A model generated the notes under the pieces. That model ran no database searches. It was not told where the DNA came from and was given only the letters and a program-made list of their open reading frames with translations. A program made the position numbers and the translations under genes. 37,104 nucleotides of DNA from Candidatus Omnitrophota bacterium (GTDB lineage Bacteria; Omnitrophota; Gorgyraeia; Tantalellales; Tantalellaceae): assembly GCA_043822245.1 (NCBI GenBank), contig JBDRBY010000030.1, forward strand, positions 1-37,104, given 5' to 3'. This document shows positions 2,037 to 2,096 of the stretch, one piece after another (position 1 is the first letter of the stretch; every line of letters starts with the position of its first letter).

Positions 2037-2096
2037 TTGCTTGCTTGCTTGCTTGCTTGCTTGCTTGCTTGCTTGCTTGCTTGCTTGCTTGCTTGC
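2037..2096. repeat. (TTGC)15 perfect tetranucleotide microsatellite
   Basis: Fifteen uninterrupted TTGC units were counted directly. They sit in intergenic DNA ~150-210 bp upstream of the ParA-like start. The plus ORF 2019-2327 (LACLLACLLAC...) is just a translation of the repeat. Confidence 0.95.

Follow-up and report, generated by a model that had tools for sequence, protein, structure and literature searches.

A perfect (TTGC)15 microsatellite in the leader of a ParA-like/poly-HAMP chemosensory operon probably supplies the element that varies in a phase-variable attenuator acting on transcription through a leader peptide, of the type known from the pil1 locus of S. gallolyticus and evolved independently of it. 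The window in which it lies is the complete 37,104-bp contig of an NCBI metagenome-assembled genome (MAG) labelled Candidatus Omnitrophota bacterium. Support for this reading comes from the repeat itself, the short upstream open reading frame (uORF) that contains it, the hairpins that follow and the arithmetic of its frames, together with an equivalent architecture and natural length variants in orthologous leaders.

Tandem Repeats Finder, run on the window, reports a period-4 array at 2037-2098 (TTGC x 15.5, 100% matches), and a regex scan counts exactly 15 TTGC units at 2037-2096. Both bear out the perfect microsatellite of the original prediction. On the coding (minus) strand the tract of 2037-2098, (TTGC)15.5 on the plus strand, reads AA(GCAA)15. 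The assertion that fifteen units are far beyond chance holds as well: GCAAGCAAGCAA, a 12-mer of the repeat, occurs 19 times with at most one mismatch against 0.28 expected, a count reached by none of 100 shuffles. All 19 matches fall in two TTGC tracts, the one described here and a second at about 22722-22750. The (TTGC)15 array is the only long microsatellite on the 37-kb contig; among simple sequence repeats (SSRs) that span 12 nt or more and have a unit of 2 nt or longer, its 37,104 bases contain only one other, (AAC)4 at 7087. Exact-protein look-ups found no other contig encoding the window's ParA or receiver protein, and the (GCAA)15 tract is known from this single contig, the sole record of the sequence.

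The first gene of the operon (1055-1885, minus strand) encodes a ParA/MinD-type P-loop ATPase (Pfam AAA_31 6.7e-48, CbiA, ParA). It is followed by the 5' part of a poly-HAMP chemoreceptor gene (1-986, minus strand), which runs off the contig end inside 276-nt repeats. These repeats, each of 92 codons and a double HAMP, occupy positions 1-740 at the contig start. Orthologous contigs carry, in order, ParA, a poly-HAMP MCP (HAMP_2/HAMP/MCPsignal), CheW and a receiver gene: a chemosensory cluster. The MCP signalling domain, CheW and the receiver that ends this order are missing from the window because the assembly probably broke in the 276-nt repeats.

Read along the minus strand, the ParA leader opens with a candidate sigma-70 promoter at 2189-2161, made of TTGTTT (2189-2184), a 17-nt spacer and TATAAT (2166-2161). 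The latter is the consensus -10 box, and the candidate -35 box matches the consensus at 3 of 6 positions, which is why our consensus scan does not list the pair. If this promoter is used, the whole repeat would be transcribed. A Shine-Dalgarno-like G run, GGGGGG (2118-2123, minus strand), precedes by 8 nt the ATG at 2109. From there a putative leader peptide of 25 codons, MAFV(SKQA)5K, extends to a TAA at 2034-2032. This uORF (2032-2109, minus strand) contains the entire (GCAA)15 tract. (GCAA)n holds no stop codon in any of its frames, and the tract can be entered in one frame only, from the ATG at 2109, because TAA codons just upstream close the other two.

An A/T-rich spacer of 34 nt separates the uORF stop from hairpin 1 (1964-1997, minus strand; AAATCCCGCG...CGCGGGATTT, then a T run; ΔG -14.5 kcal/mol). 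Hairpin 2 follows at 1909-1960 on the same strand, with a stem of about 19-20 bp, then TTTTTTGTTTTT, and a ΔG of -21.8 kcal/mol; it is flagged as terminator-like. The 137 nt after the tract (1900-2036) fold with z = -6.4 relative to shuffles, none of which, out of 200, is as stable. Two TGA stops (1940-1938 and 1936-1934, minus strand) are both located in the loop of hairpin 2; these are the stops used when the number of units is not a multiple of 3. The ParA Shine-Dalgarno sequence and then its ATG at 1885 lie downstream of hairpin 2, with 151 nt between the end of the tract and that ATG, and the interval from hairpin 2 to the ParA Shine-Dalgarno sequence is too short to accommodate a promoter. 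The nearest upstream minus-strand gene is a receiver gene (2647-3033). Since it has a terminator-like hairpin of its own at 2370-2384, hairpins 1 and 2 are predicted to terminate only the leader transcript.

This anatomy revises the original prediction in two respects. The repeat had been placed between a terminator-like hairpin and the ParA leader; the order on the minus strand is instead repeat, hairpins, ParA. It had also been proposed that gain or loss of units alters promoter or spacer geometry, which does not agree with a 60-nt tract that sits inside a uORF, has the only good -10 box upstream of it and is not enclosed by a -35 and a -10; the consensus scan returned no promoter-like pair flanking the tract. 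Because the tract lies within a short uORF ahead of two terminator hairpins, it is likely frame, not spacing, that varies.

Two other promoter candidates were rejected. For a sigma-28 promoter, or one of another type, the interval from hairpin 2 to the ParA start offers neither room nor a by-eye match. A sigma-54 promoter on the plus strand, TGGCAG...TTGC, has a GG-to-GC spacing of 15 nt, not 10, and no plus-strand gene downstream of it.

Beside the leader promoter, a 39-codon open reading frame on the plus strand (2209-2327) resembles the C-terminal half of VapB antitoxins (Pfam PF09957, E = 0.0067, below threshold) and is probably a gene remnant. A perfect palindrome of 22 bp, GAGACGCGAT(WW)ATCGCGTCTC, is also scattered over the window, in about 25 copies where none is expected by chance. 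All copies are intergenic and they often form tandem arrays with a period of 48 or 65. They are found at 2457-2641, 3052-3220, 4403-4472, 5910-5931, 7774-7957, 9902-9971, 18697-19026, 23093-23210, 23893-23964, 27410-27431 and 29348-29369, and look like a REP-like element of this genome.

To follow the frame, the tract was replaced in silico by n = 11 to 19 units. The simulated uORF has 21, 25 or 29 codons with n = 12, 15 or 18, respectively, and its stop then precedes hairpin 1 by 34 nt. For all remaining values of n it has 51-63 codons, runs across hairpin 1 and ends in the loop of hairpin 2.

We propose that a transcript would start from the promoter near 2161-2189 (minus strand) and encode first the uORF with (GCAA)15; two intrinsic-terminator hairpins would come next, and after them the chemosensory operon of ParA-like and poly-HAMP MCP genes. 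At 15 units (or 12, 18 and so on), a ribosome translating the uORF would halt 34 nt before hairpin 1. Both terminators could then form and stop most transcripts, and expression would be low. If slipped-strand mispairing added or removed one 4-nt unit, an event presumably frequent in this organism, the frame would shift and the uORF would lengthen to 55-59 codons, so that the ribosome would pass hairpin 1 and stop in the loop of hairpin 2. On those TGA codons it would cover both arms of hairpin 2, hairpin 1 being already melted; with neither hairpin formed, RNA polymerase would enter the operon and expression would be high. The ON/OFF assignment is drawn by analogy. All three independent lineages discussed below were assembled in the short-uORF frame, the low-expression state under this model, so the assignment could be reversed, or the short state could simply be common.

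Relatives of ParA were gathered from a species-representative genome set, a large protein collection and its contig index. The nearest orthologues have a microsatellite at the equivalent place, with a unit that differs from GCAA. The leader of L004 (ParA 84% identical at the amino-acid level) carries (AC)5GC(AC)6; those of L001, L005, L099 and L100 (ParA about 75%) carry (CA)13, 12, 8 and 8, respectively; and those of L006 and L007 (ParA 71%) retain a vestigial (CA)4. In the orthologues the repeat sits in a uORF of 21-31 codons that starts with MK(N/T)V, within a conserved DNA motif, TAGATGAA. One or two GC-rich hairpins with T runs follow (-14 to -26 kcal/mol), then the ParA Shine-Dalgarno sequence.

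Natural length variants occur in the clade of L001, L005, L099 and L100, whose parA genes are 98.4-100% identical at the nucleotide level and whose leader flanks are identical. Tract lengths of 13(+A), 12, 8 and 8 units correspond there to uORFs of 22, 21, 28 and 28 codons. Between the tracts of L001 and L005 the difference is exactly 3 nt, which keeps the frame, and both uORFs stop 12 nt before hairpin 1. The hairpin stems of these two differ on both arms, and each leader still folds into two hairpins. In L099 and L100 the tract is 8 nt shorter than in L005 and therefore out of frame; their 28-codon uORF stops inside hairpin 1. The idea of a candidate phase-variation switch thus stands and gains strength, on account of same-place microsatellites in related MAG leaders whose length differs between near-identical strains; the promoter/spacer mechanism attached to it does not.

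The frames behave alike in three leaders. The observed frame ends 0-3 codons past the tract in the window and likewise in L004 and L005, and the other two stay open for 27-34 codons, through the hairpin or hairpins; dinucleotide shuffles give this property P values of 0.014, 0.024 and 0.042, respectively. The rule by which the tract length places the uORF stop ahead of a hairpin or within it applies to L004, L005 and L001 as to the window. The statistic is supportive, not decisive, because in 13% of the contig's intergenic windows two frames run open over 30 codons or more, a figure inflated partly by repeat arrays, and because in L001 one alternative frame has only 13 codons, with its stop inside hairpin 1.

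Farther away, the distant ParA relatives L008 and L088-L097 (67-73% identity) have no SSR in this position. As a control of SSR frequency only, we used 80 loci (about 390 kb) from a metagenome scan in which the ParA alignment picked generic Walker-box peptides: 79 are generic ParA loci and one is a relative (L008). Their only SSRs of at least 14 nt are (GCA)5 and (TGGAA)3. Since distant relatives have no SSR and the control loci nearly none, the microsatellite is, as far as these genomes tell, a lineage-specific feature of the ParA leader that recurs with motif turnover and is length-polymorphic in nature.

The distant relatives often carry a small MerR-family gene directly upstream of ParA or overlapping it (L088, 2720-2947; L089, 2756-3001; L091, 457-732; L096, 2256-2501); a MerR gene in place of the SSR leader looks like an alternative solution for the control of the ParA-MCP-CheW operon. 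In the cluster of L097 (900-1100), with a 68%-identical ParA, a long structured-looking leader without SSR follows a TTGACA promoter-like site. In L006, and likewise in L007, the (CA)4 uORF and its hairpin (2279-2374 in L006) are separated by about 850 nt (2400-3250) from the receiver-ParA genes. This stretch has no convincing open reading frame and a second terminator-like hairpin; it may be an insertion or a decayed gene.

These comparisons also bear on whether the tract does anything at all. A slippage-prone repeat could persist neutrally in a tolerant intergenic region, with no regulatory role and an accidental uORF: any stop-free repeat yields an open reading frame when an ATG happens to sit upstream. 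The representation of the tract by one contig, the distant orthologues devoid of any SSR, the gvpA tract described below, which resembles a decaying copy, and an empirical null for open frames of only about 0.07-0.13 per locus all agree with neutrality. It accounts poorly for the near absence of SSRs elsewhere on the contig and in the control loci, for three lineages with different motifs at the same spot of the same leader, for the conservation of the uORF start, the Shine-Dalgarno sequence and the hairpins, for the short frame observed in all three lineages, and for the difference of exactly 3 nt between the near-identical L001 and L005. We regard a neutral repeat as unlikely.

The tract could also act on the 5' untranslated region independently of translation, through RNA length, structure, processing or the spacing of a regulator site, as in H. 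influenzae hmw1A or M. catarrhalis uspA2 with its (AGAT)n. Of the alternatives, this is the closest to the geometry first suggested. With the best -10 box upstream of it and the gene downstream, the tract is probably transcribed, hmw1A offers a precedent (PMC12721329), and in the minimum-free-energy (MFE) fold of the whole leader (GCAA)n forms a weak self-paired rod, its GC pairs separated by AA/AA loops. The same fold contains no complementary arm for the repeat. Positions 2030-2021 pair with the ParA Shine-Dalgarno region in one MFE fold of the window's leader, and do not in the MFE folds of L001, L005 and L004. An effect of this kind leaves unexplained the upstream Shine-Dalgarno sequence and ATG, the closure of the other two frames just before the tract and the opening of the alternative frames through the terminators in three lineages; nor does the tract lie between a -35 and a -10. 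We consider it quite improbable.

A uORF followed by a terminator is the classical layout of an amino-acid-sensing leader peptide of the his, thr or trp kind, in which runs of Thr/His codons (in the orthologues with CA repeats) or of Ser/Lys/Gln/Ala codons would stall the ribosome whenever the charged tRNA runs short, and (CA)n does encode (Thr-His)n. The operon is chemosensory and not biosynthetic, and the peptide repeat is an entirely different one from orthologue to orthologue, (SKQA)n or (TH)n. No alternative antiterminator pairing appears in the MFE folds, Rfam has no match in the window at its gathering threshold, hence no leader family, and only sub-threshold, hairpin-type matches in the leader itself. 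Codon runs, moreover, require no perfect DNA repeat. Sensing of amino acids is thus very unlikely.

Least credible of all is that the tract belongs to a frameshift-switched contingency gene on the plus strand: the 102-codon open reading frame 2019-2327, (LLAC)5..., does span the repeat and reach the VapB-like C-terminal remnant, but we rejected it as a regulated gene, for it has a TTG start without Shine-Dalgarno sequence and no family support beyond a 24-residue sub-threshold match to the C-terminal half of VapB (Pfam, E = 0.0067, 16.7 bits against a cutoff of 23.4), and the orthologous SSRs keep their orientation relative to ParA while the sequence on their far side differs.

The attenuator that we favour for the ParA leader has a possible counterpart in the same window. 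The second tract, which had been put at 22721-22752, is real and interrupted: (TTGC)3-TTGA-(TTGC)3 at about 22722-22750, some 240 nt upstream of gvpA (22272-22478, minus strand; Pfam Gas_vesicle). A candidate promoter stands at 22817-22845 on the minus strand (TTGACA, 17-nt spacer, TACATT), followed by a putative 13-codon uORF, MVISKQAIKQASS and a TAA (22717-22758, minus strand), which holds (GCAA)3-TCAA-(GCAA)3 in the codon phase AGC AAG CAA GCA, as in the ParA leader, and stops right after the tract. After an A/T-rich spacer of about 40 nt comes a terminator-like hairpin with a T8 run (22630-22676, minus strand; ΔG -16.9 kcal/mol), about 150 nt upstream of gvpA. Over the 41 nt that follow the tracts the two leaders are identical at 30 positions (shuffle P = 0.003), and for this reason they look like paralogues.

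Stochastic ON/OFF control of buoyancy, which the original prediction raised from this tract, finds no support at present. The TCAA interruption leaves just three units to its left and three to its right, so that the tract should slip rarely, and one of the two alternative frames stops after 3 codons. The module is not conserved in L098, a contig encoding an identical GvpA, as a receiver gene lies there directly upstream of gvpA and no TTGC leader is present. The gvpA-leader tract is probably a locked or decayed copy.

GvpA heads a gas-vesicle cluster that extends down to about 10.4 kb, with genes for a GvpN-like protein, GvpH/Hsp20, a CDC48-type AAA protein, four GvpF/L, GvpK and a GvpJ-like protein. 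One GvpF/L paralogue (14816-15874, minus strand) has a C-terminal DnaJ (J) domain (Pfam DnaJ, 2.8e-11), unexpected in GvpF/L, and the CDC48-type protein, encoded at 15949-18102, is a double AAA ATPase. Inside the cluster, between two REP-like palindromes, lies a 33-nt tandem repeat (18723-18958; 6.3 copies, 89% matches); open reading frames across it (18666-18950) translate to implausible repeat peptides. In L098 the receiver gene upstream of gvpA is preceded, at about 500-530, by a textbook sigma-54 promoter, TGGCACG-N4-TTGCA, a motif that suggests sigma-54 control of gas-vesicle genes in that relative.

Omnitrophota are environmental, possibly epibiotic nanobacteria. One may speculate that they keep a family of microsatellite leader-peptide attenuators, evolvable contingency switches on behaviour operons (of the chemoreceptor array and, ancestrally or at a low rate, of the gas vesicle), in which the logic of uORF plus terminator persists under a changing repeat motif (GCAA versus CA). 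We put this forward only tentatively and think it doubtful as it stands; if true, it would point to selection for mutability itself, outside the host-pathogen arms race.

In the literature searched, microsatellite-driven leader-peptide attenuation is described for one species only, S. gallolyticus, where it controls pili. A second, unrelated instance, if true, would mean that the design is general and convergently evolved. The instance would come from an uncultured environmental phylum; its repeat unit changes from lineage to lineage, its predicted terminators are arranged in tandem, and its natural variants are in different phases. It would show, in free-living communities, that stochastic ON/OFF control extends to behaviour systems inside the cell (chemosensory arrays and perhaps buoyancy). 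A further yield is a rule for searching metagenomes, namely a short open reading frame that contains a non-triplet SSR and has downstream of it a terminator open in the other two frames, and a prediction that can be checked in the reads already deposited for these MAGs.

Several known systems share parts of the proposed switch. In promoter-spacer switches, such as the TA repeats of hifA/hifB and the homopolymers of porA and opc, the tract lies between the -35 and the -10 boxes, unlike the 60-nt tract of the ParA leader, which is downstream of the only consensus -10. H. influenzae lex2A carries (GCAA)n, a unit identical to ours, and slipped-strand mispairing makes its output depend on frame, as predicted here; mod of the same species carries (AGTC)n and belongs to the same tetranucleotide class, with comparable tract lengths. 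In lex2A, lic and mod the tract is in the frame of the structural gene itself, whereas here it occupies a separate leader open reading frame, 151 nt upstream. In pyrBI-type attenuation of E. coli, the leader open reading frame is translated through the terminator and UTP is sensed via RNA polymerase pausing. The proposed switch has in common with it a ribosome that suppresses termination by translating a leader frame overlapping the terminator hairpin; the variable would be a heritable tract length instead of UTP. The trp, his and thr leaders differ in their mutually exclusive antiterminator and terminator folds and in their biosynthetic operons, neither of which is found with the ParA leader.

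For tetranucleotide contingency genes, the relation between tract length and rate is that of De Bolle et al. (2000), cited in PMC1557822. In H. influenzae hmw1A, a 7-nt repeat is one arm of a long 5'-UTR hairpin that is cut by RNase III, with a graded effect (PMC12721329). It is an intergenic SSR in a transcribed 5' leader, and expression depends on unit number; for the intergenic SSR of the ParA leader both transcription and this dependence are predicted. The ParA-leader repeat differs in having no complementary partner and in lying in a uORF ahead of terminators, so that an effect of period 3 is predicted.

The closest match is pil1 of S. gallolyticus, the only system with matching logic in a full-text search for phase variation, leader peptide and terminator. 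Its leader holds 22 GCAGA units inside a 38-codon open reading frame with a ribosome-binding site (Danne et al. 2014, PMC3894217), whose stop lies 39 bp upstream of a stem-loop terminator of -18.7 kcal/mol. Out-of-frame gain or loss of units gives longer peptides with a stop in or past the terminator and strong pil1 transcription (ON); the effect depends on translation and is abolished by deletion of the terminator. Strains vary in the number of units, and the short-uORF state is the majority state. A second locus of the species, pil3, has 13 copies of GCAGA and a terminator 33 bp downstream (PMC3894217).

The two leaders have no sequence homology, with GCAA (CA in the orthologues) as the unit against GCAGA, and ours has two tandem hairpins (-14.5 and -21.8 kcal/mol) where pil1 has one. 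The target here is a cytoplasmic chemosensory operon (ParA-like, poly-HAMP MCP, CheW), perhaps also a gas-vesicle operon, where pil1 controls a surface pilus. An uncultured environmental Omnitrophota is the host here, a Gram-positive pathogen there. What they share is the design. In both, an SSR with a non-triplet unit lies wholly inside a short leader open reading frame with a ribosome-binding or similar site, the stop precedes the terminator by a comparable distance (34 nt here, 39 bp in pil1), and a tract that is out of frame carries the stop into the terminator or beyond it, with two long frames against a single short one. Unit number differs among strains at pil1 and, on our side, in the orthologous (CA)n leaders. 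In both genomes a second locus carries the same repeat unit: pil1 and pil3 there, the ParA and gvpA leaders here.
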